DNA of 64,000 nt, taken from a virus. Shown piece by piece: positions 15,356 through 51,255 of this stretch. Location: IMG/VR virus record IMGVR_UViG_3300037493_003174, positions 1 through 64,000 of that record. One strand, written 5' to 3'. The notes beneath the pieces were generated by a model. The model ran no database searches. It saw only the letters and a list, made by a program, of their open reading frames with translations, and was not told where the DNA came from. The translations under genes were made by a program, and so were the position numbers. Within the stretch, counting starts at the first letter, position 1; every line of letters starts with the position of its first letter.

Positions 15356-18300
15356 TGAATAAGAAATCCAAATCTAAGATTATTGTTGATCCAAGAGGCC
15401 AGTGGGCACATCCTGGAAAACTAACAAGAATACCTGGTAATGATATTACTATGCAAGGTGTTCCATATCCAGTTATGGCATATCCTGATTTTGGTTCACC
15501 TGTAATGATGCATCCAGAAGAAGAATATAATTTTCCGGGTGCTAAGTATGTTGATGAATATCCAGAAATGAAGTCAGGTAGGAATACAGATAAGCATGTC
15601 ATAGTAAAACAATCTACTATAAAAGGAGCAGACAAAGGTTTATTTTCTAATCAAAGCTTTAAAAAAAATCAACTTATAGGTTTAGCGCATAGAGATGGTC
15701 AACCAGTAGGAGAGATTGGAAAGATGCATAATCACTCTGATAAACCTAACATGTATAGTGTTAAGAAAGGTAATGAAAGACATGTCTATGCAAAAAGAGA
15801 TATTAAAGCTGGGGAAGAGTTAACAACTGATTACAAGCTTCAACCAGAACTTGAGCAACCTGATGATTTTAAAAAAGGTGGGCAATCACCTAAAATAAGA
15901 ATACCAACAAGCCCTAAAGGAATTAAGTCAAAAGCTTATTCAAGAAGTCTTGAAGCAACAAATAGATTATTTGCTCTTAATCCTTTGTTTGAAGTACCTA
16001 AATCTAGAAAAAGAAAAATCTTTGATCCTAATGCTAGTTTCTATGAAAATGGTGGTATAGTATCATTTGACTATGATGATACTCTCACAAGTGATGCAGG
16101 GATGCAAATGGCTATGAATATACCTAATGATCAGAAGTATATAGTATCTGCTAGAGGAGAAGTTACTCCAGGTATGATTGATAGAGCCCGTAATGCGGGT
16201 ATTTCAGAAGATAGAATCTTTGCTATGGGTTCAGATGAAGCTAAGGTAGCTAAAGTAAAAGAACTTGGTATTGATAGACATATTGATAATAAACAATCAG
16301 TAGTAGATCAGCTAGGTACTAATGGTCAGTTATTTAAAGCGGGGGGTCAATCATCTTCTAATGACTATATTGAAATGGAACTAAGCCCAGAAGAGATACA
16401 AGTATATAGAGATGGTGGTTATACAGTAGAAGAACTTGATGATTATAAAAAAGGTGGTGCTTTACTTACTAAGAAAGTAACTTGTAAAAAATGTGGTTGG
16501 ACGTGGGATGCTGCAGATGGTGGTAATGATATGACTACATGTCATAAGTGTGGTGGCCAAGGATTAATACATGCTCAAAAGGGGGGGCAATCAAATTTTT
16601 ATACTGTATCTGGTAGTGAAGGTGTTTACAAAAAAGTTAATGGTAAATGGGAAGTAGATTGGAATAAATCTGGAAAGTTTCAACCATTATCAAAAGGTGA
16701 TGTTGAAAAAAGAACAGCAGTTTTAAATAAACAAGCTAAACTTTTATATGATTCAGATTACAATGATCTTGCAAACTCAAGAGACTATAAAGCTGTACCA
16801 AAAACAGTAATACAAAAAGCTCCAACAGTAGAACAGAAAAAAGTACAAGCAACTTTTAATAAAGACTTTAAAGTTACAGACAAAAGTAAACTTGAAAAAG
16901 TTCAAGATAAAATTAAAACAGATCAAGAAAACTTAATTAAATGGGGTCAAGAAAATAATGTACCTGTAGATCAAAAACAATTAGATGATGTAGAAAATTG
17001 GGGAATGAATGTTTATGGTAAAGTGGGTAATCAAGCAAACCCTGATACAATAAAACAAGTTACTCCAGAAGAAGCACAAGAGTTCTGGGATAAAGCAGGT
17101 GATATAGCTGCAAATCCTATGACAGCCGCAGGGTTTTTTATGCGTGGTCAAGATATTCCAGACTATATGCAGAGAGATATGGATCGTGGTACATTTGGTT
17201 ATTATGCAAATGGTCAGTTACATACTGAAAGAAATCCATTAGACTTTGCTCTTGCTGACATGACTGGATTAAGTATGATTAATGATGCAAGAAGTGCTTA
17301 CAAAGGTATAAAAGATAAAAATGTAAGTGAAGCTGGCTTAGGTTTACTAGGATTTATACCAGGTGTGAGTGAAGCAAGAAAAGCAGGAAAAGTTATTAAT
17401 GCTGCAGATGCTGTAAATGATACGCGTAAAGCTATAAATTTTTCAGGTCCCATGGTACATTCTTATGGAGATAGAGCAGAAGTATTAGGTGCTTTATCTC
17501 AAAGAGGTAAAAACTGGGACAAGTTAGGAGCTAAAGGAGAAGATCTTTTACATAAAGACATGGTAAATTATCATGGAACATATTCTGGAAGACCCATTGT
17601 TGAAGTTAAAATGCCTGATGGTTCTTCTGAAATGTTTTATAAATCTTCTGGATGGGCAAAAAAAGCAGGAGCTGCAGACAATGGTACCACAGAAGGTATG
17701 TGGCAAGTTTATGGTGGACATGCAGATGACTCCAATAATTGGTTTATGAAAGATGATAATGTACATGTTCCAGGCTTAAGTTATAAAGATTACTATGGAA
17801 GTAATACATTCCGTGGTATGGCAGAGAATATGGATAAAACATTAATGCAAAAATATGGTTTGCAATCTACAAATGAACTTGATGATGTATTAAATTTTCA
17901 AAACAGATATGGAGCTGTTGATACCTATACTCCAAAAAGAAAAACTGGTGGTTTTATTGAACTTGATCTTGATGAGGAAGAAATAGAATACTATAGAAAA
18001 GGTGGGTTTACTATAGAGGAAGTTAAGTTTCAAGATGGTGGTATGCCAACTGTTCCAACTATGCAAGAAAGTCAGACTCAGGTTGTCACTCCTATGTTAG
18101 TACCTGACATGATGCCTACAGGAGATCTTGTTGCACCTCCAGTTGTTACTGAACCTATAGTGGCTACAACAGTTCAACAACCAGCTACCCTAGTGAACAC
18201 TCCAGTAATAGATCAACCAACACCTACTAAGAAAGAAGTAGAGAAAGTAGCAATGCCAAAGATTGAACAATCAGGTGATGTTAAAGCAATTCAAAAGAAA

Positions 18301-34717: not shown

Positions 34718-37700
34718 ATGAAAATACAATGTGCTTTATCTGAATCTCAGATTAAAAAATTATATTCTAATGTGTATGGAAATATGGTTGAACAAGGAGA
34801 CGCGTTTAACCCTGAGCAATACATGAAGGATTTGTTCAATAAGATTGCAAAAAACTCTGATGTAGATACTGCAGCTAAGTTTATGCAACAAGTTCCATCT
34901 ATGATTGGAACAGCATCCTTCCGTCCGGCTCTGGAAGATTTTGAAATTAAAACAGATTCACTAAAACCACTTATCAAAAAGTTTAAGAAGTCTGAGAATG
35001 GTATTGATAATACTGTTAAATTTTTTAGACCACAACTGGATCCAGATGTTGAGAAAGAACTTATTGAAAAGAAAGCATTAAGTGCATTTCATATTGCTGA
35101 GAAGACTAGTGATACAGTTCCTGCTGATCCATTTAACTATCAGACATACTCATCTTTGTCAACTACTTTTCAGGAATTTATCTCTAAGAATCCTAATGAA
35201 GATATTCAAACAGAAACTTTTGATCCAGGAAGAAGAACAATTTATTCTACTCTTGCCGCAATTAGAGAAGAAGCAAATAACAATACTCCATTAAGAGAAC
35301 TTGTATATCAAGATACTATACTTAAGTTAAAGCCTGTAAGGTTATCTGAAGTAGATGAGAATCTATTGGATAAGACAACAAAGAGATTGGTCAATAGGGC
35401 AGCTTATTTGAAGGGGTCAGGTCAGGCACAATCTTATGTAACAACACCAGATAATATATTCCTAATGGTTATCTCTGATAAAGATGGTATTCCATTACAG
35501 TTTAATGAACAAGGAGATATTGTTGCTGAAGGTGGTCAACTTGTTTACCAATTCTTGAGAGAGGTTAGAAAGGATGGGAATAAGTTTAAGGTTACAGATA
35601 TCTACGGAAGGTCAGAACAAATTATTGATCCGGCTATTCTAGCTGAGAAATCAGGTATTACATTAGAAGAAGCTCAAGTAAGACAACAGGATGAGTTTAA
35701 AGAGCTCTATGAGTTTAGAGAAAAGCTTATTAAAGGTGACTCACCTTTAGTTGACATTGTAGGAGTTAGCCAGGGAATAAGTGAGATTAAACCAAATGCA
35801 TTAAACTTATCCAATATCAGTATTATACTAGAAGATAATGACCATGCAATAAGAACATTGTCTGTTGTTAAATCACCACGTTCTGGTTTTGAAAAAGGAG
35901 AAGGAGTTATTACTATAAAAGGTGTTGAATATAAAGTTGACCGTCCAAACTTAACTGCAGAACTTACTAAAAAGATTGCTACAGTCTTGACTAACAAGGA
36001 GTTAACAAACAAAGAAAAGTATGATTATGTATCTCAACTCTTAGCAGACAAGGCATCAAATGATACAAGAAAGCATGAACTTGAGTATCTTGAAAAAACA
36101 GATAAACTAATGTTCTCATATTCTCCAACAACTTTTGCTGAAGGATATAGTAAGTTTATTGATGTAGATCTTAACTCACCAGAAGCATTCCAACAAATTA
36201 CTGATGCGTTAACAAATGCTTCAGGAAAAGATGGTAAGTACTTTAGTGCTAAAATGACTTATAGTGATAATGCAATTGAGAAAGGTTATCAAGATTATGA
36301 TTTGGCAACTAACACATTGTCAGATGATTACCAAGATTACTTTGCTTTAATTAAAGGTCTTCCAAATACTAAAATCTTTGCAGATATATCTATTGATAGT
36401 AGATCATTCAATAGTTACATGGGATTTGCAATTCCAAATCAGTTCACAGAACAACTGGCAAAAGCTCAAGAGTCAACTGAGACAGTAAACAAAGATGACT
36501 TCTTTGAGTCTATGGTAGATGAAAGTCTTACTCCAGGAGAAGAGATGTTCAATACTCTAATGAAAGAAGCAATTTCAACAGAGGCCAGAGGATGGAAAAC
36601 TATTGTTGATCAGGAAACAGGTAAGCTTCACAAGGACAATTACTACATGTCAACTTATTTAACTAACCAGTTAAAAAATAATGCTAGACGGTTTACAAAA
36701 GAAACCATGCAAGAAGTACTTGATAATTATTCAACTTTCAGAAGGCCAAGTAAAACTGAGATGGAAATCATCCAGAAGGAATTTGATAAAGCATTTGCTC
36801 CTCAAGTAACTAAAGCTAAATCAATTGAAGAAGTTCAAAATGAGATTAATAGTTATATTGATCCAAAGAATGTCCCAACTCCAGAAAGCAATGGTCCGGG
36901 TGATGCATTCTTCCTAAGAAAAGGAGACCTTCCATCTGATGTATCTACTGAGCAGGTAGAAGATGCTAAACAATGGTGGGCAAACTCTCCATTAAACAAA
37001 CACATTGGACTTAAACAAGTAGCAAACATTGTTAATTCTAATGCTTATGCAAGATTCATTGCTTATGGTGCTGCATTAAATGGCAACCTAGGTATGATTG
37101 AAGTTGCAGCAACTGGGAATATGGTTGATGTTTATCATGAAGCTTGGCATGGCTTCTCTCAATTATATCTTACTAAAGCAGAAAAGAAGGCTCTATACAA
37201 TGAAGTACTTAGAAGAACAGGTAAAAGCTTAAGCTTCTTTGAAATTGAAGAATTACTTGCTGAGGAGTTTAGAGATTATGCAAAGAATCAAAAGACAGTA
37301 AAAGATGCACCAAAAAGAAATAGTCTTTTTAGAAAAATACTTGATTTCTTAAAAGCATTATTTGGAAAAGGTTCAGTTACAAATCTATCTGAGATAAGTA
37401 CAGTAAAAGAATTATTTGATAATTTATATTTAGGTAAGAATCTGAATAACTACACACCACTTATAGACAATGTTATGTTTGACTTGCTCTACAGAAACAG
37501 TGGTATAGTTAAACCAGGTACTGAGACAGATCAAGTATTAAATAGACAAGACTCCAACTTATTGAAAGATAGTATGGATTCTATTATCTCTGATATCATT
37601 GACAATGAAGTAAGTAAAAGAGATAATAAGGGAGCAACTTTAAGTATTCTTTTGGATAAAAGAAACCGTGAGCCTCTTTATAATATGATTAAGCAAAATC

Positions 37701-40700
37701 TAGAAGCAAAGTTAAAGACTTATGAAACACAATTAGAGGAAACTCCAGAGAATGAAGAGAATGAATATAAAAGGGACATACTACAAAACAGAATTAGAAT
37801 TATACAAACTGGTCTTGAAAACTATGGGGATACAAAATCCGGACTTGTACAATACCATGTGGAGAATAGTTCTTATGACCTTGTAAGACAAAAGTATACT
37901 GCATTAGAACTTGATGAAGAAGGTAATCTTGTTGAACCTGAGAATGCTACTGATACTGAAAGATATGGTGATCAGAAAGTAAATGATAAGTCACTTATTC
38001 AATTAGCTGGTAAGGAGACTCTTTATATTCTAAAGAGTTTGTATCAAGCAAAGATTAATAAGAAGACAGGTCAAGTAGAGTATGAATACAATGAACTAGG
38101 ATTCAAGAAGCTTGCTGACTTTAGAAGTACTTGGAATAATACAGTAAGAGCAATTGGTGGTATTCAAGATCCACAGCAAATGTATGATAAACTCATGCAA
38201 GAAAGTGAAACTGTACCAGAGTTTAAACAACTAGTGCAATCAAAACTTCCTAACCCAAAAGTATTTACTAACAATGCATTTGAGTTTCAAGCAACAACAT
38301 CTTTCTGGCAAGACTTTAGTAAAACTAGAGTGCCCTATATTCAGCTTACTGTGTTTAAAAATCAAATAGGTGAAAAAATTGAGTACAATAATTTTACTGG
38401 AGCAGAAATAAAAATTCCTATTTATGAGTATGATGCACAAGTAACTGAAGCTTCTAATGAAGTTGGGAATATTGTAAGAATGTTTAAAGAGAACTTTAGA
38501 GCAAATCAGAACAATCCATATGTAGAAAGAGTTGGTAGAGATAATACACCAATGCTTAATCTTGGAAAAGTAGTTGATAGTTTTTCATCTCAAGGTAAAT
38601 TAGATGTAAATCAATCTTACGGTTTTGCAAGAGCACTTGGATTCAACTTGAGTGATTTAAGTATAATTAAGAATACGCTTAAGAAAGATAACAAAACAAT
38701 TGAAGAATTTGGTCTTCCCTACATATTTGATATTATTAAAAAATTGCATGAGAAAGAACAACTTCCAAATACCAATAGTACTACAAGAAGTTTGATCAGT
38801 AAGTTTAGAGAAAATCCAATTGAAACTTTATCAAAAGGAATCCCTGCTAATATTATTAGTACTTCAGAAATTATACAGAAAAATAAAGTAATTGCAATTG
38901 CAAGTCTTGAAGCAAGATATGGTACTAGAACTTCTAATTCTATGGTACTTAATGCTGAAAAGAATCTTGTCTCTGAATTTATTGATAATCATACAATTAG
39001 CAAACAGGTATATGCATTAAACAATGCAAAGAAACTTTCTGATCTTTGGACTACTGATGAATTTAAGCATATGTCTTATATGGATCCTGCTATTAACTCT
39101 TACACAAATAGATTAGGAATAATTAGATCATTGTATGACTTAAAGTCTCCTGAGCAATCAAGAAGAACAACAAGATCATTCTTGTTATTTGCAAACTCTG
39201 GAACTCAAGTTGAGAATGAAGATGGATTTAATACAACTAGTTTAGATGTAAATAGTAAGATGATTCAGGAAATGCATACTATGTTGAAAGACGGTGTGCA
39301 AGAATTTATGAGACATGCTTCTAAGTCATCTTCATTTGGTGCTAGAATTGAAGGAGGAGTTATTGGTCTACCAGGTAAAGAAGGTGGAGACAATAAGCTT
39401 TGGGTTGACCTTGACATGTTTGGTAAAGGAACTGCATTTGATTATGCATTAAAGTCTCATTTACTTCCTTACATGGAAGCAGAGGCTGAAAGAATCTACA
39501 GATTCAAGATTAACAAAGATGAGTTTAAGAAATATGCTGGCTATAATAGAGTGCTCAGTAGTGGAAAGATGGCTGGTGAAGAATTTACAGCCTTTGATGA
39601 TGTTATCTCAGATTCATTAAAGAAACAAATCTATGATGCTATTGACTCTGCAGTTAAGAACAAGACTCTATTTAATTTATCTAGTTTCTTAAAACAAGAT
39701 ACTACAGGTGCACTTGGTGTATTAAGAGGAGATGTAAAGAAATATTTTGATGAGCAAACTAAAGAAAATCTTGAGATGCTTCAGGAATCAAAGTATATTT
39801 CTCAAGATCTTAAAGATAGAATGAAAATATTTAATCTATCAGATGATCAAGTAGAACAAAAGCTTGTTGAAACATTTACATATAACTCTTGGATACATAA
39901 CTTTGAAATGGGTATTCTTTTCTATGGTGACTTTGCTCAATACAACCACTACAAAGAAGAGATGCACAAAAGAAATACTGGAGCTACATCCGGGGGCCGT
40001 GGGTTTAGATCTGACATAGCAGCAAGAAACTTTGTTAATGGTTACTTAGCTACTACATCTTATGCTAAAAAACAAGGCATTTCTGCTATTGCATATAATG
40101 GTACATTCAATACTGCAATTATTCAAGATGTAATTAGAGATTCAGAATATCTTGGACAAATTGAGAAAGGTCTTAGAAAAGACTATGAAAAAAGATATAA
40201 GAATGCAGGTGTTCCAAATGCTGAAAAGGTAATTAATGAAAGATTAAAGATAGAACTTAGTAAGTATAAAGGAATGGAAGAAGGAGATGGGCAAGGCTTT
40301 ATCACCTTTGATGCATATCGGACACTAAGACACCTTGAAAATGCTTGGTCTAATGAGCAAGAAATATTATTTCAAAGAATTGCTAAAGGAGACAATGTAA
40401 CTACAAGTGAGATTAAAGAACTCTTCCCTGTATACAAAGTACAACACTTTGGTAACTTAGCTAATACTGGTCTTCCAATAAATGCAATGCACAAGTTTGC
40501 ATTAGCTCCGTTAATTCCTAGTGTTATTGCTGGTTCAGATCTTGAGAATCTTCATAGACAAATGATGACTAAGAATATTCAGTATGTTACATTTCAAACC
40601 GGTTCTAAAGTAGGTAGTGTTACATCTGAAGTAAATGATAAAGGTGAAGCAGTAGCTGATAAAATTTATGATGATAAAGATCAAAAGTCTTTAAAAAGAG

Positions 40701-43700
40701 ATATTGCATTTACTCCAAATGTTATTTACCTTGAGAATCTTAAGAATGTAACTAATGTACCTAACAAGTTTAAAAACAAAACTGTGTTCTCAACTCAGTT
40801 AAGAAAATTGATCTTGGGAGGTATGTATAGAAATGGTAAGATTATCAATCCTAAAAACTCAGTTGCAGTAAAATCATATGAAGCTGCAGTTGATGCTTAT
40901 AGTAATATCCTAAAGCTTGAATTACTTCATGAAATTGGATATGAATATAATCCAAAAACTAAAAAGTATACTGGAAACATACAAGACTTCTTAGAGGTTG
41001 TTCAAAGAGAACTTGAAAGAAAAGATCTTCCTGAGCATTTAATACAAATGGTAGGGCTCAATAGAGATAAGTCTATTAAGACTGATTTGTCTCTGCACCT
41101 TAAAGCTGATGATATTGAAAAGATTCTTGTTTCTCTTGTAGAAAAAAGATTGATCAAACAAAAAGTAAAAGGTGAAGCATTAGTTCAAGTTGCTAGTTCT
41201 ATGTCCAATGGAATGTGGGATAACAAACTTAAGAAAGCTACTAATGCAGATATATTAAAGTACATGGGTACTAATAATTTGCCTTTCTATAATAATGATA
41301 CAGCTGATGGTAAGACTGCAGCAATGAAAGTTGCTGTTGCACTTCAAGGAGACTTTGCTAACTTGCTTAAACTTAACCACTTAGATGGTGAAGTAATTGG
41401 TACAAGACAAAGACTTAATGAAATGATTAAGGATGACAAGTGGATGGATTTAGATAACAACCGTAAAGCAGTAACAATATCTGCAGTACGTATCCCAGTT
41501 CAGGGTATTAACTCAATGGAATTCATGGAAATCTATGACTTCTTAGATCCAGCTGCAGGAAATATTATTATTCCACCATCAGAAATTGTTGCTAAGTCAG
41601 GAGCCGATTATGATGTTGATAAGTTGACAACATTTATGCCTAGCATAGATAGTAATGGTCAATATGTTGAAACAGGATTGACTAATGATGAAGTTCTTAA
41701 AAAAGTAAATGAATTATCTGGAAATGAAAGAGGAAGTAAAGTTGCCAGAGCTTTAATTAAGAAACAGAAAGCAGCTTTAGAAAACAGATTAATTAATACA
41801 ATCAAAAGCATTCTTGAGTTGCCAGATAATTATGCAGCATTAGTAAGACCAAATGATACATACTTACTTAAAGATGAGATAGCTGATGTAATTCAAGATG
41901 ATGTTATTGAGTATAACAGATTTAAGAATGTAAACAGTAAGGATTACAGAGTTAATAAGAAAGGTGAAAAAGTAATTAGCCCAACAAGAATTCTTGAGTC
42001 ACGCTACAACTTACACAAACATGATGTAAACACAATTGCTAAGAGAGTATTAGGTATGATCGCTATAGAAAATGCATTACACCCAATCTTTAATTCAATT
42101 GGTGTATCTATGCCTGCAACATATAAAGATTCAATCTTTGATGATTCACTTGGAAGATATGTTGATGGAAAAAATGACTATGATGTAAGACTAATGTTGC
42201 CTCATAATAAAACTGATGACGGTAGAGTTTCTCTTTCAGGTACAGATACTGTAGATGGTATGGACAACATTGGTGAATTATTTTCACAAATGATGAATGG
42301 TGCTGTGGATGTTGAGAAAGATGCATGGATATTCTTTATCCAGGGTAACTATGAGATTACTCCAATGATTACTTTCTTACTAAAAGCTGGTGTGCCTAAA
42401 GAAACTGCAATTCTATTTGCCTCAAATCCAATTGTTAGAGAGTATGCAAAACAACAAAGAATAATTAAAAGTGCATACTCAAAAGTTACAGGAACAATTG
42501 CTGAAAATTTTATTCCAACTATGGGTAAATATCAAGCTGCAGTAAATGCTTTAGCAAAGTTTGGAATTAAAGATGGAGCACAGAAAGTAAGTCAGAAAAA
42601 ATATTATAATGCTGTTACTAAAGCAACTGGTGCTTCAGGTATTTTAAATTCTAAAGGTGAGTTTGATCTTGAATTAATGAAAAAAATCATTAAGAATCCA
42701 AATGAACCATCTTTGAGAAATCATATGGAAGCAATGTTCCTTCACTTTATTGAGCTTGAAAAATCTAGCCGTGGATTCACTACACTTAAGTTCTTATCTA
42801 ATCCAGATACTAAGACTTCTAAAACTTTACAAGAAGTAATAAGAAGAAATATGTCATTAGAGGATGCTAAAGCAATGTCAAAAATTGAAGAAGGCACAGT
42901 AGATAAATTAAAAGAAACTGTACTTGGTACTTTCTTTGACAATAAACTAATTAGTGATCTTATTGTTCCATTATTTCCACTTAGAAATAATGATACTGTA
43001 ACTAACTTTATTTTGAAAACAAGTGCTGAAAGAGCAGGTGCAGTTGCAAAAAGATTTGGAAAAGGTCAGGACGGAACTAGAAGTTTTATTACTCAGTTCA
43101 AAAATGCTATTCCAAACTACATCTTCCAGAATTATATGTCCAACTTTGTTGATGAGAATGGTAAACTAACAAGTATGCCTAAGAACTTTAATAAGATGGA
43201 TGTTGTTAGTAAAGTTGGAGTAAAGAATGGGGCAGAGATCATTAATGGGAAATTGTTTGTAGATGACGCAAGGCTTAGAAAAGAGTATCAAGAAGGTTTG
43301 TATTATAGGAACAATACCATGCCTGGTAATTATTCTGAAAGTGGATTAAGAGGACTTGGAGCTTTAGTAATCTTTGAATCAGAAGCTGCCTATTTCAGAT
43401 ATGTATTTGAAAGAGAGAATCAAAGAAATTTATATTCACTTGAGTCTTTATTAAAAAACAAAGACTTTAAAAAAATGCGTGAGTTAACTGCCAATGATAA
43501 AGAAGCTTATGAAGCTTACATAAATCAAAGAGCATTAATTAATGCATTCAATAGAGTAGCAATCATGGGTCTTGAGGGCCAGTCATATACAGACATGGTC
43601 TTAGATATGATAGAAGAATTCTCTCAACTTAAAGGAAGATACCCAATCTTAAGTCAGTTTACTATACCAAACATTAAGACTGGAGAAAGAGTTTTGACTT

Positions 43701-45382
43701 TGAATGATAAAGCTATGTTGAAAGATCCTCAGTTAGCAGAGATTTACTTTGAAAATCTGAAAGATTTGGCTGATGAGAATGTAAAGAAAGTTACAGATAC
43801 TGAAGATAACAAAAGAATCAGTAAACTTTTTGGCCTGCTCCCTATAATGAGCATGTATCAACATGGTATAGGGTACAGTAAGTATGGATTTAATGAAGCA
43901 CTTCCATATGAAGGCTTTATTGGTGTAATGCAAACTGCATCTGAGATCTTTATGAAGAGTCAGTTAAACAATGATACTCTTGGAAACATCTTTGAGTTAA
44001 TGCTTGATTCACCTAATAGAGACTTTACTAATTTTGTAAGAGATCCTAAGACATATATTGCTCCTAAACCAGTTGTTCAACCTGTAGAAGAAGAAGTAAT
44101 CATGGATGCTAATACTCCAATGATTGAAGACATGCTTGCTATGGCTCAGAGTGCTGAAGAAGTTCCTACTCAGAGTGATATAAAAATTCCTAAAGTTGGA
44201 GACATTGTTACAATAAGTTTTTATATAAAAGGTGAAGATGTTGATGTAAAAGCAAAAATAGTGAAATTAGAAAACTATCTTGAAGCAAACATTTATAATA
44301 AAGGCTTTGAAGTAGATTTAGAAAATATCAAAACTGGTAAAAAATATGAAATATATGTAGATCCTGATGGAATTATTTCTCAATTTCAAGGTGAAAAAGG
44401 TTTAAGAATTGGAACTGATAACTATATAAAAGAATTTGATATAGATTTACAAACTAAAACAACAACTACTACTCAACCATCTACTAGTGTTAAAGAAGTT
44501 ATTCCAACTTATGGAGCTGTGCAAGTTGCAACTAATCCTACAAAAGAGTTTGACAAGTATTTAACTGATGCAATTTCAGATAATATTAAAAATAATGCCT
44601 ATGTTGAAAACGGTAGTAGCTCAGCTAATTTAATGTTTAGCTATGGATGGCAATGGAAAGGTAACAACTCTAAACAAGTTATTGGAGATAAACTTATTGT
44701 ACAACCGGCTCAAGTAGATTTTAGTGGTAAAGGAAATCCTGTTGCCGTTAAGTCTAAATATTTTTATGATTCTAAGTATAATGATGGTGCTACAGTGCCA
44801 AATATATCAGAACTAGATTTTTTAAAGAAACATATTGAAAAGAATTTAGGTATTGACATGTCTGATTATGACATTGCTTTAAATAATATTTATACGCAGG
44901 GAACTAATTTATTCAGACATACTGATATTGATGAATCTAATACTGCAAAAAACTATCCAGTTGTTGTTTATGTTTTAGGAAATGAACATAAAGTAAGAAT
45001 AGATGACAATGGTGGAGGTGCTGTAAGAGGTATGGGAGAAATGGTTAATCCAAAAACTTTAACATTAAAGAATGGAGATATTTATACATTTGGTATGAAT
45101 GGTAAAGGTAGATTTGAAGCTGTACATGATGTTATTAGAACAAATAAAACAGATGATACTTTTCCACCAATAACTTTACCTGATGGAAGAACCATAAATA
45201 AGTATACAGTTACTTTTACATTCAGAAGAGCCGCTGATTTAGAACCAGGTATGCCAACTACACCCGCTAAGATTACACCTACTCAACAATCTACAGATAC
45301 TCCTATAACAGAAACAATTACAAACAAAAATACACCTGAAGGTTTACCGGGAATTGATAGAACATCATCTGATTGTCAATAA
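34718..45382 (+). CDS. Virion-packaged DNA-dependent RNA polymerase (crAss-like two-barrel RNAP) with zincin motif and C-terminal AlkB-like domain
   Basis: EEGDGQGFI, STQLRKLI, RIPVQGINSM (~41489) and the catalytic-type SGADYDVDK (DxDxD at 41606-41620); HEAWH at 37136-37150; HTD..H..R near the C-terminus. Confidence 0.85.
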   Translation: MKIQCALSESQIKKLYSNVYGNMVEQGDAFNPEQYMKDLFNKIAKNSDVDTAAKFMQQVPSMIGTASFRPALEDFEIKTDSLKPLIKKFKKSENGIDNTVKFFRPQLDPDVEKELIEKKALSAFHIAEKTSDTVPADPFNYQTYSSLSTTFQEFISKNPNEDIQTETFDPGRRTIYSTLAAIREEANNNTPLRELVYQDTILKLKPVRLSEVDENLLDKTTKRLVNRAAYLKGSGQAQSYVTTPDNIFLMVISDKDGIPLQFNEQGDIVAEGGQLVYQFLREVRKDGNKFKVTDIYGRSEQIIDPAILAEKSGITLEEAQVRQQDEFKELYEFREKLIKGDSPLVDIVGVSQGISEIKPNALNLSNISIILEDNDHAIRTLSVVKSPRSGFEKGEGVITIKGVEYKVDRPNLTAELTKKIATVLTNKELTNKEKYDYVSQLLADKASNDTRKHELEYLEKTDKLMFSYSPTTFAEGYSKFIDVDLNSPEAFQQITDALTNASGKDGKYFSAKMTYSDNAIEKGYQDYDLATNTLSDDYQDYFALIKGLPNTKIFADISIDSRSFNSYMGFAIPNQFTEQLAKAQESTETVNKDDFFESMVDESLTPGEEMFNTLMKEAISTEARGWKTIVDQETGKLHKDNYYMSTYLTNQLKNNARRFTKETMQEVLDNYSTFRRPSKTEMEIIQKEFDKAFAPQVTKAKSIEEVQNEINSYIDPKNVPTPESNGPGDAFFLRKGDLPSDVSTEQVEDAKQWWANSPLNKHIGLKQVANIVNSNAYARFIAYGAALNGNLGMIEVAATGNMVDVYHEAWHGFSQLYLTKAEKKALYNEVLRRTGKSLSFFEIEELLAEEFRDYAKNQKTVKDAPKRNSLFRKILDFLKALFGKGSVTNLSEISTVKELFDNLYLGKNLNNYTPLIDNVMFDLLYRNSGIVKPGTETDQVLNRQDSNLLKDSMDSIISDIIDNEVSKRDNKGATLSILLDKRNREPLYNMIKQNLEAKLKTYETQLEETPENEENEYKRDILQNRIRIIQTGLENYGDTKSGLVQYHVENSSYDLVRQKYTALELDEEGNLVEPENATDTERYGDQKVNDKSLIQLAGKETLYILKSLYQAKINKKTGQVEYEYNELGFKKLADFRSTWNNTVRAIGGIQDPQQMYDKLMQESETVPEFKQLVQSKLPNPKVFTNNAFEFQATTSFWQDFSKTRVPYIQLTVFKNQIGEKIEYNNFTGAEIKIPIYEYDAQVTEASNEVGNIVRMFKENFRANQNNPYVERVGRDNTPMLNLGKVVDSFSSQGKLDVNQSYGFARALGFNLSDLSIIKNTLKKDNKTIEEFGLPYIFDIIKKLHEKEQLPNTNSTTRSLISKFRENPIETLSKGIPANIISTSEIIQKNKVIAIASLEARYGTRTSNSMVLNAEKNLVSEFIDNHTISKQVYALNNAKKLSDLWTTDEFKHMSYMDPAINSYTNRLGIIRSLYDLKSPEQSRRTTRSFLLFANSGTQVENEDGFNTTSLDVNSKMIQEMHTMLKDGVQEFMRHASKSSSFGARIEGGVIGLPGKEGGDNKLWVDLDMFGKGTAFDYALKSHLLPYMEAEAERIYRFKINKDEFKKYAGYNRVLSSGKMAGEEFTAFDDVISDSLKKQIYDAIDSAVKNKTLFNLSSFLKQDTTGALGVLRGDVKKYFDEQTKENLEMLQESKYISQDLKDRMKIFNLSDDQVEQKLVETFTYNSWIHNFEMGILFYGDFAQYNHYKEEMHKRNTGATSGGRGFRSDIAARNFVNGYLATTSYAKKQGISAIAYNGTFNTAIIQDVIRDSEYLGQIEKGLRKDYEKRYKNAGVPNAEKVINERLKIELSKYKGMEEGDGQGFITFDAYRTLRHLENAWSNEQEILFQRIAKGDNVTTSEIKELFPVYKVQHFGNLANTGLPINAMHKFALAPLIPSVIAGSDLENLHRQMMTKNIQYVTFQTGSKVGSVTSEVNDKGEAVADKIYDDKDQKSLKRDIAFTPNVIYLENLKNVTNVPNKFKNKTVFSTQLRKLILGGMYRNGKIINPKNSVAVKSYEAAVDAYSNILKLELLHEIGYEYNPKTKKYTGNIQDFLEVVQRELERKDLPEHLIQMVGLNRDKSIKTDLSLHLKADDIEKILVSLVEKRLIKQKVKGEALVQVASSMSNGMWDNKLKKATNADILKYMGTNNLPFYNNDTADGKTAAMKVAVALQGDFANLLKLNHLDGEVIGTRQRLNEMIKDDKWMDLDNNRKAVTISAVRIPVQGINSMEFMEIYDFLDPAAGNIIIPPSEIVAKSGADYDVDKLTTFMPSIDSNGQYVETGLTNDEVLKKVNELSGNERGSKVARALIKKQKAALENRLINTIKSILELPDNYAALVRPNDTYLLKDEIADVIQDDVIEYNRFKNVNSKDYRVNKKGEKVISPTRILESRYNLHKHDVNTIAKRVLGMIAIENALHPIFNSIGVSMPATYKDSIFDDSLGRYVDGKNDYDVRLMLPHNKTDDGRVSLSGTDTVDGMDNIGELFSQMMNGAVDVEKDAWIFFIQGNYEITPMITFLLKAGVPKETAILFASNPIVREYAKQQRIIKSAYSKVTGTIAENFIPTMGKYQAAVNALAKFGIKDGAQKVSQKKYYNAVTKATGASGILNSKGEFDLELMKKIIKNPNEPSLRNHMEAMFLHFIELEKSSRGFTTLKFLSNPDTKTSKTLQEVIRRNMSLEDAKAMSKIEEGTVDKLKETVLGTFFDNKLISDLIVPLFPLRNNDTVTNFILKTSAERAGAVAKRFGKGQDGTRSFITQFKNAIPNYIFQNYMSNFVDENGKLTSMPKNFNKMDVVSKVGVKNGAEIINGKLFVDDARLRKEYQEGLYYRNNTMPGNYSESGLRGLGALVIFESEAAYFRYVFERENQRNLYSLESLLKNKDFKKMRELTANDKEAYEAYINQRALINAFNRVAIMGLEGQSYTDMVLDMIEEFSQLKGRYPILSQFTIPNIKTGERVLTLNDKAMLKDPQLAEIYFENLKDLADENVKKVTDTEDNKRISKLFGLLPIMSMYQHGIGYSKYGFNEALPYEGFIGVMQTASEIFMKSQLNNDTLGNIFELMLDSPNRDFTNFVRDPKTYIAPKPVVQPVEEEVIMDANTPMIEDMLAMAQSAEEVPTQSDIKIPKVGDIVTISFYIKGEDVDVKAKIVKLENYLEANIYNKGFEVDLENIKTGKKYEIYVDPDGIISQFQGEKGLRIGTDNYIKEFDIDLQTKTTTTTQPSTSVKEVIPTYGAVQVATNPTKEFDKYLTDAISDNIKNNAYVENGSSSANLMFSYGWQWKGNNSKQVIGDKLIVQPAQVDFSGKGNPVAVKSKYFYDSKYNDGATVPNISELDFLKKHIEKNLGIDMSDYDIALNNIYTQGTNLFRHTDIDESNTAKNYPVVVYVLGNEHKVRIDDNGGGAVRGMGEMVNPKTLTLKNGDIYTFGMNGKGRFEAVHDVIRTNKTDDTFPPITLPDGRTINKYTVTFTFRRAADLEPGMPTTPAKITPTQQSTDTPITETITNKNTPEGLPGIDRTSSDCQ

Positions 45383-45411: not shown

Positions 45412-48400
45412 ATGCCTTGTCCAAATAAAATAAGATCAAATTTATTTAATGAAGTTCTTGCAAAAGCTACGCCTGCTAAAAGTATGTCTATAGAAGGTGC
45501 AAGAGAATTAGCAAGAACTCTTAATAGAGAGTATGGTGCTAGTGTAGTGACTGTAGAACTAGGTGATGTTATAGAAGTAAATGTATCTATACCAGAATCA
45601 CTTGTTAATACATACTATGCAAGTGAGTTGGCTATTGAGATGAGAGAACTTGCACAAGCTGAAAAAGAAGCAAGAGCAATGCAGAGAGAAGATGCTGAAC
45701 GCGCAGGTGTTGAGTATACTGATGATTATCTTAAAGATGAAGACTTAGCAGAAATATTTACTGAAGAACAAGTACAAGCTGCAAGAGATCAAGAGATAGC
45801 AATGAAGTTAGGTCAGAAGTTTAAAAATGCTTTTGGTATTGACTACAAAATAGTTTCTCCATCTGAGGCTGCCATTATTCTAAAAGATAGTCCAACTCCA
45901 TTTACTGTAGGCACTGCAGGTTTCTTTTATGGTAACCAGGTATATTTTGTTAAGGGTTATTTCAACTCAAATTCAGTAATGCATGAATTTAGTCACCCTT
46001 TAATTAAAGGTATACAGTATCAGAATCCAAAATTATTTGAAAACTTATATGCTCAGTTAGCTACATCAGCAAATGGTCAAGCAGCAATTCAGTATGTAAA
46101 AGATCAGTATCCTGAATTAGAAGAAGGAACAATTAGATTTAAAGAGGAAGCTATTGTTACTGCAATGGAAATGGATGCTCAAATGAAATTGAACAACATC
46201 AAATCAGATGACAGTTTATTTAACAAATTTATTCAGAACTTACTCTATGCATTAAAGAAAGTTCTTAAAGCTCTAACAAATAAAGTAAATCTTCAGAAGC
46301 TTGATACAACTACAACTCTTGATCAGTTAGTTGATATGATGATTAATGAAGACTTTGTTATTCAGGATCTCAACTTCCAACAAAGTTTATTTGCAGAGTT
46401 CAAAAAAGAAACAGATCAGTTCTTAAAAGAATTAGAAGAAGTTACACCAAAGGACTTAATTAAAACTATTGACAAGTTCCATAATGAAATGTCATTCCAG
46501 TTGGGCCAGTTAAGAAACTCACCAAAGAAATTAAAAACTGAGTTAGGTAAAGATGGTATTGATCTTATTAAAAACATCAGAGACTATGTTAAAGGATATA
46601 AAACATCCGGAGAAGTTAGTGATGAAGAACTTGAAGTACTTATTGAAGCTCTACAAAAAGATGAAAGAGATTTAAGATTGAGATCTCTTGCCTTTATTAA
46701 CAGTTTAGCTGAGCTTAATGTATTTGCTAGAAGAATAGAAAAGATCATGAATGATCTAAGAACTTCTAAAGCATACCAGACTGAAGAAGGAAACCAAAAA
46801 ATCCAGTATTACAAACAGTTCATGGAAAGACAGGTTAAATTCTTAAGAGATGTTAGCAAGCAGATTGGTCTTGATCCGTCAAATGAGTTGAGTAAAAAGA
46901 TTTATTCTATCAAAGGTTTGATGGAAAATAATATTGAGAAAGCAAAAGACATGACATTTGATTATGTTAAAGATTTCTTATTGGATCAGACTCAAGTTAT
47001 GCAAAGAAATGTTAAAGGGAACTTAGTAGAGAAAATTAATGATCTTTTAAAAATTGATGGTTATAATGAAGCAGATAGTCAAAAAATTGTACAAGAGCTT
47101 CTTGATAAACTAGATATTGATAAGCAAAGAAATATTACTGAAGAAACTCTGGGTCTTCCAAATAAAACTCCTAGGTTTAAGTATTACAAAAAAGCAATTC
47201 AAAATTATAATGCTAATAAGATTTTAGAAGATACAGTTGATGATTACCTAAGAGGTCATGTTAAAGACCTTGGAATGGCTGGTGCTATGCTAAATCCTCT
47301 AGGGAATATTAATGACTTGTTTGGATCCTTTGTTCAATACATGCGTAAGAAAATTGCTGATGCTGAAGTACAAAGTCAGCAAGAACAAATGAGATTTGTA
47401 CAAAGTCTTGTACCTGATTTGAATGCCCTAGGGTATAATCCAAATGATACTTCACAACTTGCAGACTTAGTTTTGTTTGTTGATAAAGAAGGTATAGTAG
47501 ATGAGGAAGGAAACTATGAAGAGTATGAAGTATATTCATATATTGATAAGTTCAAGAACTGGAGAGCAGATAAAGCTAAACTTCAGGCAGATTTAAAAAA
47601 GGCTAAGATTAAAGGAGATAGAGAAGCCATTAAGGAAGCTATGCAGGCTATGAGAGATTTTGAAAGAGATCACATGGTCCGTAGATACAAAGATAAAGTA
47701 TTTGATGTACAGAATATCTGGTTACAGGCTAATGTTATCTATGACCCAAGTTCTAAAAAAGATATTGTTATCTCTTCTGACATTGCATTAGATGCATTTA
47801 CTGAAAAGAAAGAAGCAATTGCTGAGTTAAGTACTTATAACTCTAGTGACTTTACAACTCTTGAGGATTTATTAGAATTTACTCCATCCGCGGCAGCTAA
47901 AATAAGATACAATGAGCTATTTAATCTTTATGACAATGATGGTAATTTTAAGCAAGGTGAAGAGTTACAAAGAGTTCTTGTAAGAAGACATCATAGAGAG
48001 CAATCTAGAAAGTTCAATGAGTCTGTATCTAATGTTGAAAGATTCCAAAAAGACTTTGACAATTTTGTTAATCAAGAATTGGCAGGGTTAGGTATAACTT
48101 ATGATAGTGATCCTGCAAGATATGAAGCTGAAGTAAAAAAGTTCCTAGATAAAAACACTAGAATAGCTTATGATGATAGTTACTTCCAAGATAGAAACAG
48201 GATCCTTGATAATATTCAGAAGATAAATGATAAAGCAAAAGGAGCTGACATATCTATTAGACTAGCTGCATTATATGAACAACGCTCTCATATAGTTAAT
48301 AAGGTTACTGATAAAGATGGGGAGCCAAATGGAACTGAACTACCTCTTGATTCACTTAAAAGATTAAAATCTCTTGAAGAAGAAATAGTAGATCTTCAAG

Positions 48401-51255
48401 ATCAGTTTGATAAAAAGACTGGTTTATCTAAAGATGACTCAAGAAAACTTAGATACTATGAAGAGTTTATTATTGGAAAAGGTTTAGCATCAAAGATGAC
48501 TCCTGAGCAGAAAAAAGAATATGTAAATTTATCTTCTAAAGCTAAAGCATTTGGTTTATCAGATACAGAAATTGCATATTTAAGAAATCAGTTTAGACAG
48601 TTGGCAGAAATGACCAATACCTTTGCTACTGATTATTATGTACAAGCCTTTAATACAGCACTTGGTACTAGCGATGTAGCACCAATTACTATTGACACAG
48701 CAGATGAGTGGATTAATGGTGATATGGTATTGGCAGCAAAGACTGGTAACTCAAGATTTTCAGAGTGGTTTGATAGAAATCATTATATGAAAAGAGCATA
48801 CAATCCTAAGACTGAGCAGTATGAAGACATGTACATTAGAACTAAAGCTTGGAGTGTAAGTAGACCATCTGATGAAAAGTACATGAAGAAAACTACTATT
48901 ATAGATCCATCAACAGGAAAAGAAATTCCAATCAATGGTGTACCCGTAGCTAAGTATTCATATACTAGAATTAAAGATGAGTATAGAACTGGATATAACC
49001 CAGTAACTAAGAAAGTAGAACTTGAAGTTGGTGTTCATATTGATAACCGTGGTAATTTTTTACCAAAAGAAGTTGCATTGAATGCTCCTAACTCAAAGTA
49101 CATGAATGAAAAGTACTATGAAATTAAGAGTAAAGGTGGACCACAATTTCATTTACTAGAAACTCTTAAAAAAGAAAGAATTAAAGCTCAAGAAAATTCA
49201 CCTTATGCCTCTAGATTATATTTAGACTTTCCAAGATTTAGAATCACTGAAAATTTAGAGTACAAACAATCTGGAAACTTAACAAAAGATATAAAGGATA
49301 AGAAGAGTGCAATAGTTGATTCAGCAAAAGCCTTAGTAAAACAAGTAGCTGATGATGCAGAAAGAGGAGCTAATTATATTGATAAATTCTTATTTGTTCC
49401 AACTGACTTACAAGGAAATCCAATTTCTAAAGTTCCAGTAAGAGGTTTATATAAACTTGACGTTAATGTAGTTTCTAAAAATGTATTAAAGTCTGAGTTA
49501 AATTACATGAACTCATTAGATATCCAGAAGGTATTAATAGAAGCAGAACCAACTGTAAAAGCATTGGTAGATGTACTTGGAGATCCTGAAAATGCTCTAG
49601 ATAAATTAAATATGGCCAGCTCTACTCTATCTAAAGCGCAAGATAAAGCTGCAGTATTCTTAAAGAGAGAAACAAACAACAGACTTCAAGTTGCAATAGA
49701 TGTTATGGATAGAACTTTCTATGGTCAGACTGTAAGTGAGTTTCAACAAGAAAATCCTGTCTTCTCAAAGTTTGTAAGAGGTTCTCTAGGTGCTGCATCA
49801 TTTGCATTCTATAACTTAAATCCAGTATCTACAATAAAGAATAAGTTAGGAATGAACTTTCAGAAAATGATTTTTACATCTGGAGGTAAGTTTATAAGCT
49901 TTCCATCTATTGCAAGAGGTAAAGTAAAAGCAACAAAAGTACTATTTGAATATGCTACTAAAGATGCTTATGCAAGAGGAGTTAAAGGTTTAGATATGCA
50001 GATAGCAGATGCATTTAATATGGCTCCAGGTAAAGCTAAACAAGAAATTGGTAAATCAGCTACAAATACAACTGTCAAAGAATTATTAGATGGAGCATGG
50101 ATGTACTCTGATAGAAAGCTTACTGAATTCCAGGGCTCATTAGAGTTAGGATATAGCATGCTTGACTGGCAAATGATAGATCAAATTCAACCAAATGGTG
50201 AGGTAACACAAATTAGATATGTAGATGCGTTTGAAACAGATGCTGATGGCATTGCAAAACTTAAAGCAGGAATCAATCCTGAATGGGGTATGAACTATGT
50301 TGATCATGTTGTAGAGGCTGGAGATACATTAGCTTCACTTGCTAAAAAATACAACATGACTGTTGAGGAGTTAGCAGCCAAAAATAAAATTGATGCAAAA
50401 GCTAGTCTTGAAGAAGATCAATCAATTATTATCTCAAGAAATGAGAAATTTAATATGATAAAACTTAGAATTGCTAGTGCAAACAAAAAGTTAAATGGTA
50501 CAGTAGAAGCAATTGAATCACCAACTGCTGAGAAGAATTTACTTTATGATGTATTTACTTTCTCAAGAAAGTTTGGTACAGGTATGTTCTTATCTAGATT
50601 CCAGACAGATTTGTCTAAAGAAAATAGATTTGGAGAAGTTTGGGATTGGGATTTGAATGAAACAACAAGAGGTAAATATATTACTTTCTTAAGTGGTTTA
50701 AATAACTTAATACGTGATGGTAAAAATTACTATCCAACTATGACTGATGATGAAAAGTCAGCATTTAGAGAAGTTATTTTTGAAGGTGTATCTTTATTCC
50801 TAATGGGTCTTGCAGTATCATTACTGTTTGGTTTTGATGGGGATGATGAAGACAGATTTAAAAAACTAAAAGAACGTGAAGAAAAATATGGTACAGCAGG
50901 TTGGTTAGCTAATCACATGTTGTATCAGTTAATCATGGTTCAAAAAGAAAATAGCACAATGATACCTTTACCTGGTATGGGTGCTGGTGACTGGTTAGAC
51001 TTTACTAAAACAAGTACTATAGCTATGGGACCAACATTAGAACTTTATCTTAAGATTACAAAAGATATGTACTATATTCTAACAGGAAATGATAAAGCAG
51101 TTTATAAACAAGAGGTTGGGCCATATGAATGGCAAGATGAAGGTCACTATAAATTATGGAATCACGTAGGATCAATCTTTGGATTATCTGGTAAAAACTT
51201 AAGTCCTTACTGGGCAATTAAGAAGAATGAAATATTTACTAATTTAAAAGGTTAA
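45412..51255 (+). CDS. Giant virion protein 3 with zincin-like HExxH, LysM domain and C-terminal TM helix
   Basis: GFFYGNQVY..MHEFSHP..EEAIV; HVVEAGDTLASLAKKYNMTVEELAAKN (LysM, ~50305-50433); GVSLFLMGLAVSLLFGF. Confidence 0.7.
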   Translation: MPCPNKIRSNLFNEVLAKATPAKSMSIEGARELARTLNREYGASVVTVELGDVIEVNVSIPESLVNTYYASELAIEMRELAQAEKEARAMQREDAERAGVEYTDDYLKDEDLAEIFTEEQVQAARDQEIAMKLGQKFKNAFGIDYKIVSPSEAAIILKDSPTPFTVGTAGFFYGNQVYFVKGYFNSNSVMHEFSHPLIKGIQYQNPKLFENLYAQLATSANGQAAIQYVKDQYPELEEGTIRFKEEAIVTAMEMDAQMKLNNIKSDDSLFNKFIQNLLYALKKVLKALTNKVNLQKLDTTTTLDQLVDMMINEDFVIQDLNFQQSLFAEFKKETDQFLKELEEVTPKDLIKTIDKFHNEMSFQLGQLRNSPKKLKTELGKDGIDLIKNIRDYVKGYKTSGEVSDEELEVLIEALQKDERDLRLRSLAFINSLAELNVFARRIEKIMNDLRTSKAYQTEEGNQKIQYYKQFMERQVKFLRDVSKQIGLDPSNELSKKIYSIKGLMENNIEKAKDMTFDYVKDFLLDQTQVMQRNVKGNLVEKINDLLKIDGYNEADSQKIVQELLDKLDIDKQRNITEETLGLPNKTPRFKYYKKAIQNYNANKILEDTVDDYLRGHVKDLGMAGAMLNPLGNINDLFGSFVQYMRKKIADAEVQSQQEQMRFVQSLVPDLNALGYNPNDTSQLADLVLFVDKEGIVDEEGNYEEYEVYSYIDKFKNWRADKAKLQADLKKAKIKGDREAIKEAMQAMRDFERDHMVRRYKDKVFDVQNIWLQANVIYDPSSKKDIVISSDIALDAFTEKKEAIAELSTYNSSDFTTLEDLLEFTPSAAAKIRYNELFNLYDNDGNFKQGEELQRVLVRRHHREQSRKFNESVSNVERFQKDFDNFVNQELAGLGITYDSDPARYEAEVKKFLDKNTRIAYDDSYFQDRNRILDNIQKINDKAKGADISIRLAALYEQRSHIVNKVTDKDGEPNGTELPLDSLKRLKSLEEEIVDLQDQFDKKTGLSKDDSRKLRYYEEFIIGKGLASKMTPEQKKEYVNLSSKAKAFGLSDTEIAYLRNQFRQLAEMTNTFATDYYVQAFNTALGTSDVAPITIDTADEWINGDMVLAAKTGNSRFSEWFDRNHYMKRAYNPKTEQYEDMYIRTKAWSVSRPSDEKYMKKTTIIDPSTGKEIPINGVPVAKYSYTRIKDEYRTGYNPVTKKVELEVGVHIDNRGNFLPKEVALNAPNSKYMNEKYYEIKSKGGPQFHLLETLKKERIKAQENSPYASRLYLDFPRFRITENLEYKQSGNLTKDIKDKKSAIVDSAKALVKQVADDAERGANYIDKFLFVPTDLQGNPISKVPVRGLYKLDVNVVSKNVLKSELNYMNSLDIQKVLIEAEPTVKALVDVLGDPENALDKLNMASSTLSKAQDKAAVFLKRETNNRLQVAIDVMDRTFYGQTVSEFQQENPVFSKFVRGSLGAASFAFYNLNPVSTIKNKLGMNFQKMIFTSGGKFISFPSIARGKVKATKVLFEYATKDAYARGVKGLDMQIADAFNMAPGKAKQEIGKSATNTTVKELLDGAWMYSDRKLTEFQGSLELGYSMLDWQMIDQIQPNGEVTQIRYVDAFETDADGIAKLKAGINPEWGMNYVDHVVEAGDTLASLAKKYNMTVEELAAKNKIDAKASLEEDQSIIISRNEKFNMIKLRIASANKKLNGTVEAIESPTAEKNLLYDVFTFSRKFGTGMFLSRFQTDLSKENRFGEVWDWDLNETTRGKYITFLSGLNNLIRDGKNYYPTMTDDEKSAFREVIFEGVSLFLMGLAVSLLFGFDGDDEDRFKKLKEREEKYGTAGWLANHMLYQLIMVQKENSTMIPLPGMGAGDWLDFTKTSTIAMGPTLELYLKITKDMYYILTGNDKAVYKQEVGPYEWQDEGHYKLWNHVGSIFGLSGKNLSPYWAIKKNEIFTNLKG

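Follow-up and report, generated by a model that had tools for sequence, protein, structure and literature searches.

The IMG/VR virus record IMGVR_UViG_3300037493_003174 is a linear sequence of 82,341 nucleotides (nt) with an estimated completeness of 69%, and its first 64,000 nt, which have a G+C content of 33%, are referred to here as the window. The virion structural genes and the genes for giant proteins form a block on the + strand, which is followed by a replication block (DNA polymerase, exonuclease, ATPase) on the - strand. Among the giant-protein genes is an open reading frame (ORF) of 3554 amino acids (aa), stop-free throughout, that encodes a predicted virion RNA polymerase (RNAP) of the type found in crAss-like phages, and that carries close to its C-terminus a module resembling AlkB, a dioxygenase that depends on Fe(II) and 2-oxoglutarate (2OG). 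The two central features are:

34718..45382, + strand: ORF of the crAss-type virion RNA polymerase, comprising a body (aa 1 to ~3145), a cargo region (aa ~3145-3526), and a tail (aa 3527-3554)
44489..45247, + strand: AlkB-like Fe(II)/2OG dioxygenase module, aa 3258-3510, together with the region of the N-terminal nucleotide-recognition lid, as delimited by PF13532, AlphaFold2, and superposition on AlkB, and conserved along its entire length in 241 homologues

The module was called an AlkB-like dioxygenase fused to a virion-type RNA polymerase in an earlier note on this DNA, and both halves of that assignment are borne out by the profile, model, and alignment data described below. On balance it is probable that the module is a catalytically competent member of the AlkB family, carried as an exchangeable cassette on the polymerase and acting as a base dealkylase that is delivered together with it.

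A search with the PF13532 profile (2OG-FeII_Oxy_2), the check proposed in the earlier note, placed the C-terminal 360 aa above the gathering cut-off (E 2.1e-7; 31.8 bits versus 31.2 bits), and a six-frame search of the genome gave 33.1 bits, which again exceeds the cut-off by a small margin. When scored within the whole 3554-aa protein, the domain reached 27.7 bits only, which is below the cut-off. A phmmer search of the C-terminal piece against PDB sequences returned OsALKBH1 as its sole match at E 0.41, and this match improved to E 4.2e-5 when a profile of a family alignment of 22 sequences (A1) was used. The same alignment served for hhalign, which aligned the family with Escherichia coli AlkB at E 8e-6, and for an AlphaFold2 model of the module (predicted local distance difference test score, pLDDT, 91; predicted template modelling score, pTM, 0.91). 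E. coli AlkB accounts for all the top Foldseek matches of this model (E 2.8e-10); ABH2, ALKBH3, OsALKBH1, ALKBH1, and ALKBH5 come next. Superposition by VIA-align on E. coli AlkB gave Z 22.0 and a root-mean-square deviation of 2.3 Å for 197 of the 207 AlkB residues, and the span covered (residues 12-215) is the entire enzyme, nucleotide-recognition lid included; OsALKBH1 followed at Z 21.3, and ABH2, ABH3, and ALKBH5 at Z of about 16. The double-stranded β-helix fold, on which the earlier note had made its assignment depend, is present in the model. Compared with E. coli AlkB (PDB 3KHC, 3I3Q, 2FD8), the module has in common the whole fold and lid, the HxD...H and NxY motifs, R210, the equivalents of W69, Y76, and Y78, and the HxDxDE signature, whereas it is ~21% identical to AlkB, carries ~55 extra residues in two loops, and has Thr in place of R204 and N206. 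Moreover, the E. coli enzyme is a free-standing repair protein under SOS/Ada regulation, whereas the module resides inside a 3554-aa phage polymerase.

The active-site positions of the module, as aligned by hhalign, are:

44885..44893, + strand: N3390-I-Y3392, NxY motif for 2OG binding (N120 and Y122 of AlkB), invariant in 241 sequences
44918..44935, + strand: H3401-T-D3403-I-D3405-E3406, HxD metal ligands followed by the equivalents of D135 and E136
45104..45106, + strand: K3463, candidate anchor of the 2OG C5 carboxylate, proposed from a bias towards basic residues in modules with Thr at position 3497 (Thr-forms)
45125..45127, + strand: H3470, distal metal-ligand His (H187 of AlkB), invariant
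45206..45226, + strand: T3497-V-T-F-T-F-R3503, occupying the place of R204-x5-R210 of AlkB, with R3503 invariant

The sequence motifs lie where they had been placed before, with NNIYT at aa 3389 (nt 44882), HTDIDE at aa 3401 (nt 44918), AVHDV at aa 3468 (His3470 at nt 45125), and TFTFRR at aa 3499 (nt 45212). The hhalign alignment equates Y76, N120, Y122, H131, D133, D135, E136, R183, H187, and R210 of AlkB with Y3348, N3390, Y3392, H3401, D3403, D3405, E3406, R3465, H3470, and R3503 of the polymerase, respectively. Besides, it equates R204 with T3497 and N206 with T3499, which agrees with the earlier observation that the first Arg of the usual RxxxxxR pattern is replaced. Throughout 241 homologous modules all of these positions are invariant save the equivalents of D135, R204, and N206; position 3405 is occupied by D, T, or S, and its neighbours H3401, D3403, and E3406 do not vary. 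W3313 is also invariant among the homologues and is likely the equivalent of W69. Given this residue-by-residue equivalence, H3401, D3403, and H3470 would be co-located as the metal site, and aa 3258-3510 is, in the model, an AlkB-fold module with an intact HxD...H triad. In AlkB, D135 and E136 contact the base and R210 is the Arg that sets the family apart (PMC8508711), while R204 forms a salt bridge with the C5 carboxylate of 2OG (PMC7467159). The invariance of the catalytic and base-binding equivalents in the 241 homologues argues for selection on catalysis and on base binding.

The replaced Arg was followed through 220 full-length modules, 91 of which have the canonical Arg at the position of aa 3497 and 129 of which have Thr. 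The Thr-forms are monophyletic in a maximum-likelihood tree, in which the Arg-to-Thr replacement is one change. Since this Thr-form clade has diverged to ~40% identity and yet keeps the metal ligands, NxY, R3503, and the base-stacking Trp and Tyr invariant, it is under purifying selection and is presumably active. This bears on the alternative that the Thr-form clade, after loss of the residues equivalent to R204 and N206, has abandoned the canonical use of 2OG and instead employs another 2-oxo acid or another binding mode, acts on a substrate other than nucleic acid (e.g., protein), or has become a silent nucleic-acid-binding module that holds the single-stranded template. The presence of T3497 and T3499 instead of two 2OG-contacting residues speaks for such re-purposing, as do an insertion of ~34 aa and of variable length between the W69 and Y76 equivalents, and the sharp separation of the subfamily from canonical AlkBs: among 1.84 billion representative proteins the family profile retrieved only 252 at E <= 0.001, many of them 3000-6000 aa long, and did not reach the canonical enzymes. 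We nevertheless consider re-purposing quite unlikely, as inactivation or a new target should have cost the domain some of the residues that all 129 Thr-forms retain, and as Arg-form relatives with a canonical RxxxxxR share the same architecture.

The carrier of the module was characterized by comparison of aa 1401-2900 with 50,697 phage records. This tblastn search matched 96 records, all of Crassvirales type; their names identify them as Bacteroides, Flavobacterium, and Cellulophaga phages, crAssphage, and uncultured phages. One of the matches is g066 of Cellulophaga phage phi14:2 (E 2e-18), which is annotated as 'Catalytic RNA polymerase subunit', and a pairwise BLASTP comparison with the gp66 protein gave E 5e-24 over 607 columns, with GADYDVDK of the polymerase in register with GSDFDIDK of gp66. 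The catalytic motif concerned is:

41609..41623, + strand: DYDVD, aa 2298-2302, DxDxD catalytic motif of a two-barrel RNAP, matching 1361-DFDID-1365 of gp66 column for column

By virtue of the homology to gp66 and the aligned DxDxD motif, the carrier of the AlkB module is identified as a crAss-type RNA polymerase, as the earlier note had proposed. A phmmer search of the whole polymerase against PDB sequences gave no match, and no family in PHROGs matched either the polymerase or the AlkB module. The two proteins share a homologous core and a location of the gene among those of giant virion proteins, whereas gp66 (2180 aa) is 1374 aa shorter, is only 23% identical in the core, and is without AlkB or a comparable cargo region. 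The gp66 protein is packaged in the virion, translocated into the host, and transcribes the early genes, and in vitro it uses single-stranded or denatured DNA as template (10.1101/2020.03.07.982082). The RNAP-associated proteins of PhicrAss001 travel in the capsid as cargo; they are believed to be ejected in a partly unfolded state and to regain their fold inside the host, and each is estimated to be present in ~6 copies per virion (PMC10172136). By homology to these proteins, the 3554-aa polymerase would likewise be packaged and injected. The N-terminal third of the polymerase also contains a HEAWH motif (HExxH, zincin-like) at aa 807-811 (window 37136-37150).

Comparison with the closest polymerases divides the protein into a body that is conserved (aa 1 to ~3145), a cargo region that varies, and a tail of 28 aa that is again conserved, and the homology to the closest relatives ends at aa ~3140-3168. 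The elements of this C-terminal region are:

44192..44452, + strand: small module of ~87 aa (aa 3159-3245) ahead of the AlkB cassette, beyond the end of homology to the closest relatives
44469..44484, + strand: upstream joint, 16-nt CTACTCAACCATCTAC, a copy of direct repeat D5, in frame and encoding TTQPST (aa 3251-3256)
45279..45294, + strand: downstream joint, CTACTCAACAATCTAC, a direct repeat copy identical to the upstream one in 15 of 16 positions, in frame and encoding PTQQST (aa 3521-3526)
45296..45382, + strand: conserved C-terminal tail, aa 3527-3554 (...NTPEGLPGIDRTSSDCQ), with the stop codon, 59-92% identical in all relatives whichever cassette they carry

The two repeat copies are 810 nt (270 codons) apart, and the 16-nt word is found nowhere else within the window. 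In 15 related viral loci the same word borders modules, always in the same frame, including loci of which the AlkB is only 38-41% identical. The limits of the cassette can be set at 44466..45294, as a related locus (L003) matches at 89.9% of nucleotides over exactly this span and beyond it matches only 73 nt (43096-43168); the nucleotide similarity to a second locus (L004) also ends at 45294. The ~87-aa module ahead of the cassette had no match in PHROGs. Where body and cargo region meet, QSAEEVPT/QSDIKIPK is encoded by a 24-nt repeat in tandem (79% identical; window 44145-44192), and a third, weaker copy lies at 44481-44504, directly after the upstream joint; these repeats may be remains of earlier joints. 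The tail has a Cys one or two residues from its end and also terminates the short fragments P0104 and P0106, and it may constitute a packaging, anchoring, or processing signal. The earlier note had put the AlkB domain at the C-terminus of the polymerase, which holds in the sense that it is near that end; the extreme C-terminus is not formed by the module, after which 44 aa follow, including the 28-aa tail that is kept in relatives.

The histories of body and module disagree. The five nearest bodies (P0240-P0244) are 84-91% identical over ~3140 aa and are without AlkB, while AlkB modules that are 92-93% identical sit on five proteins whose bodies are only 64-67% identical. The slot of P0240-P0244 holds a HEAAH-containing module of ~130 aa, with or without two small modules; the conserved motif LLHEAAHNY (HExxH) is found in the cargo region (~aa 3160-3290) of P0241-P0244, and the two extra small modules are those of P0240 and P0242. 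Two further relatives (P0245, P0246) have almost no cargo, and P0248 and P0252 have a SLOG-like module, which in P0252 is accompanied by ART-PolyVal. Across the relatives, AlkB, NADAR, DUF7831, ART-PolyVal, SLOG-like, SF1 helicase, zeta-toxin/AAA_33, RNase H, and HExxH modules occur in varying combinations, and in one protein (P0005) a NADAR domain adjoins the AlkB module. Since body and module do not share one history, the module is a repeat-bounded exchangeable cassette, traded horizontally between polymerase lineages, rather than a lineage trait. The survey of C-termini of related polymerases that the earlier note had suggested therefore has a divided outcome, as the module is present in some of them and is not a fixed feature of the lineage.

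Metagenome data lend supporting weight only, as the contigs were matched at a likeness threshold of 85% in complex samples and are noisy. Depth spikes over the joint to 146 and 128 in runs X2 and X3, versus a maximum of 74 in any other bin. Among the matches listed, several contigs diverge right after 44494, and a contig of the freshwater-sediment run X2 joins 43956 to 45295 by 246 foreign letters; the latter represents an allele whose cargo differs and stops exactly at the downstream joint. No contig among the matches listed spans the passage from body to cassette; as unitigs break off at the repeated joint, this gap proves nothing. An assembly chimera at the joint was considered and rejected, as the same in-frame architecture recurs in numerous assemblies made independently from four sources and as reads are much longer than the repeat.

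The joints encode low-complexity linkers rich in Thr, Pro, Gln, and Ser that flank each module, and these are potential protease sites. Together with the HEAWH motif at aa 807 and the possibility, raised for gp66, of activation by proteolysis (10.1101/2020.03.07.982082), they could accommodate a scenario in which the AlkB module is not delivered, either being cut off at the TQPST linkers or acting late in infection before packaging, for example by cleaning progeny DNA. We regard this scenario as very unlikely. The tail that lies C-terminal to the cassettes is conserved in all relatives, which is simplest to understand if the whole chain is handled as one unit, and the precedent of polyvalent proteins is delivery of fused enzymes (PMC5512222).

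The AlkB cassette has so far a restricted distribution. RNAP core sequences were detectable, after profile iteration, in 130 of 149 giant AlkB-bearing proteins and in none of the remaining 19; the AlkB module is C-terminal to the core in 122 of the 130 and N-terminal to it in 8. A minority of giant proteins have AlkB near the N-terminus (P0016, P0080, P0086, P0158, P0161, P0067, and others), and the cassette may also ride on neighbouring helicase-type cargo proteins. A search for free-standing forms, limited to proteins of 139-443 aa, found 16, mostly on contigs of 1-5 kb, and these look for the most part like fragments. Neither the AlkB piece (tblastn) nor the gene (megablast) found anything in the 50,697 phage records, and the module is thus missing from all 96 deposited phages with a matching RNAP core; many of these are named as infecting Bacteroides or come from human faeces. 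The likely source run of the record is a sediment metagenome, and other runs that hold 0.23-0.52 of the sampled words are sediment, freshwater-sediment, wastewater, seawater, freshwater, and aquatic metagenomes; there were no RNA datasets among the listed holders of the sequence. Wastewater run X5, from a different study, contains the pieces 44660-44810 and 43769-44460 with 0-2 differences, of which the 151 nt inside the AlkB module have 0. These matches show that this phage strain exists, together with its AlkB module, beyond the sample from which the record probably comes. The holder of the cassette is an uncultured aquatic crAss-like phage.

Two other giant genes were noted in the vicinity. 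A 1618-aa ORF (window 15355-20211) within the virion and cargo gene block matches the SET domain of protein lysine methyltransferases at aa 114-161 (PF00856, E 1.7e-9). Directly 3' of the polymerase, a 1947-aa ORF (window 45412-51255) has LysM and transglycosylase-like matches near aa 1631-1673 (phrog_1274, phrog_4602), which points to a part that binds or degrades the cell wall in another giant and probably ejected protein.

In the mechanism that we propose, the whole polypeptide would be packaged and driven into the host before or together with the DNA, in the manner of phi14:2 gp66 and the PhicrAss001 cargo proteins, after which the AlkB module would refold and load host Fe(II) and 2OG. The tethered enzyme could then oxidatively remove N-alkyl adducts of the 1-methyladenine (1mA) and 3-methylcytosine (3mC) type from the single-stranded template DNA or from nascent early transcripts, which would keep the incoming genome transcribable irrespective of whether the adducts arise spontaneously or are inflicted by the host. 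The absence of the R204-type Arg would in this mechanism probably be compensated locally, with Lys3463 as the candidate. E. coli AlkB prefers single-stranded substrates and the cationic lesions 1mA and 3mC, the latter being recognized via D135 (PMC8508711). This preference for single strands, together with the use of single-stranded templates by gp66-type polymerases, supports single-stranded template DNA as the target, and the retained HxDxDE signature (HTDIDE in the polymerase versus HQDKDE in AlkB), with its D135 equivalent, supports a substrate of the 1mA/3mC type.

The same observations can be set against a reading in which the injected enzyme is an offensive or epigenetic eraser that acts on the nucleic acids of the host rather than on those of the phage. 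It might strip protective methyl marks such as N6-methyladenine (m6A), as a consequence of which host restriction enzymes attack the chromosome, or it might demethylate 1-methyladenosine or 1-methylguanosine (m1A/m1G) in host tRNA or rRNA and thereby reprogram translation. Iyer et al. have proposed exactly such a role for AlkB genes that occur sporadically in jumbo phages (PMC7824862); moreover, the sister cassettes include host-modifying ART-PolyVal and zeta-toxin-like kinases, and structures of E. coli AlkB bound to m6A DNA (PDB 4nid and others) are among the fold matches of the module. An eraser of this kind is rather unlikely in our view, because the polymerase to which the module is tethered works on phage DNA, because the few copies delivered per virion (~6 per RNAP protein in PhicrAss001; PMC10172136) would be scant for genome-wide erasure, and because the D135/E136 pair, which in AlkB favours cationic 1mA/3mC lesions, has been kept. 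In addition, searches with the three Pfam families PF02086, PF01555, and PF00145 gave no DNA-methyltransferase match in the 82-kb, 69% complete record that would hint at a contest over methyl marks.

A related idea starts from the other cassettes carried by related polymerases. The presence of NADAR and other polyvalent-type cassettes in relatives suggests an injected toolkit for repair and counter-defence. It may be speculated that AlkB would erase base alkylation or methylation with which an as yet undescribed immune system of the host marks incoming phage DNA or early RNA, in parallel to the neighbouring NADAR cassettes that possibly reverse ADP-ribosylation of DNA, and that the Thr-form clade has a re-wired 2OG binding (Lys for Arg) or a changed co-substrate; this extended proposal is unlikely.

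Several points weigh against the favoured reading of a delivered base dealkylase. The Arg that should bind the C5 carboxylate is replaced by Thr3497 and the N206 equivalent by Thr3499, by reason of which cofactor binding may differ. Lys or Arg occupies position 3463, which precedes the distal His by seven residues, in 119 of the 129 Thr-forms versus 24 of the 91 Arg-forms; this bias would fit a relocation of charge with Lys3463 as a candidate local stand-in for the missing Arg; however, as the Arg-to-Thr change is a single event, this association is without statistical weight. The module scored 25.4 bits with TIGR00568 (alkb equivalog; cut-off 231 bits) and 13.5 bits with NF011930 (cut-off 267 bits), and because these values are far below the equivalog cut-offs, it is best assigned to a distant AlkB subfamily and not to AlkB orthologues. 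Only ~1 in 7 of the best 120 RNAP-core relatives have the module, and this patchy distribution indicates that it is dispensable for polymerase function. The activity, substrate, and packaging of subfamily members are arrived at by inference only, and on the present evidence the substrate could be DNA or RNA and the target could be phage or host. Finally, AlkB requires O2, the likely source sample is sediment, and one might expect an enzyme that depends on O2 to be of no use in anoxic habitats.

Of the elements that make up the proposed delivered dealkylase, AlkB enzymes, AlkB-polymerase fusions in plant RNA viruses, and injected polyvalent proteins were already known. The AlkB domains fused to the replicases of plant RNA viruses (Flexiviridae and others), which the earlier note had correctly invoked as a precedent, repair RNA (van den Born et al. 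2008, PMC2553587). They resemble the present module in being AlkB-type dioxygenases joined covalently to a viral polymerase polyprotein, with keeping the viral nucleic acid free of methyl adducts as the proposed role. They differ in that they reside on RNA-dependent replicases of eukaryotic single-stranded RNA viruses and are made in the cell, whereas the polymerase of the window is a DNA-dependent two-barrel RNAP of a tailed double-stranded DNA phage and is probably pre-packed in the virion. The polyvalent proteins (Iyer, Burroughs, Anand, de Souza, Aravind 2017, PMC5512222) are giant multidomain proteins, codelivered with DNA, that have variable sets of effectors. As in that class, several unrelated enzymatic domains are combined here in architectures that vary between relatives, and ART-PolyVal, NADAR, zeta-toxin kinase, SLOG, and SF1 helicase domains co-occur among the relatives of the window polymerase. 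A difference is that the scaffold is the virion RNAP itself and that modules are exchanged at a fixed in-frame DNA joint. The terms AlkB, dioxygenase, and crAss have no occurrences in PMC5512222, and a literature search found no paper that links crAss-like phages or Crassvirales with AlkB or a dioxygenase. What the present analysis adds is the single origin of the Thr-for-Arg change in a constrained clade, the discordance between body and module identities, and the precise extent of the cassette (44466-45294).

Were the module both active and delivered, a crAss-like infection would count nucleic-acid base repair or de-modification among its earliest biochemical acts, and the polymerase-tethered AlkB would be the DNA-phage counterpart of AlkB on plant RNA-virus replicases. 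The repeat-bounded in-frame cassettes offer a concrete route by which phages could reshuffle their injected toolkit, and a natural AlkB clade that thrives without the canonical C5-carboxylate Arg provides a test case for cofactor binding in 2OG oxygenases. Moreover, the co-occurrence of AlkB and NADAR suggests that base-modifying attacks by the host on incoming DNA may be commoner in Bacteroidota than is known.

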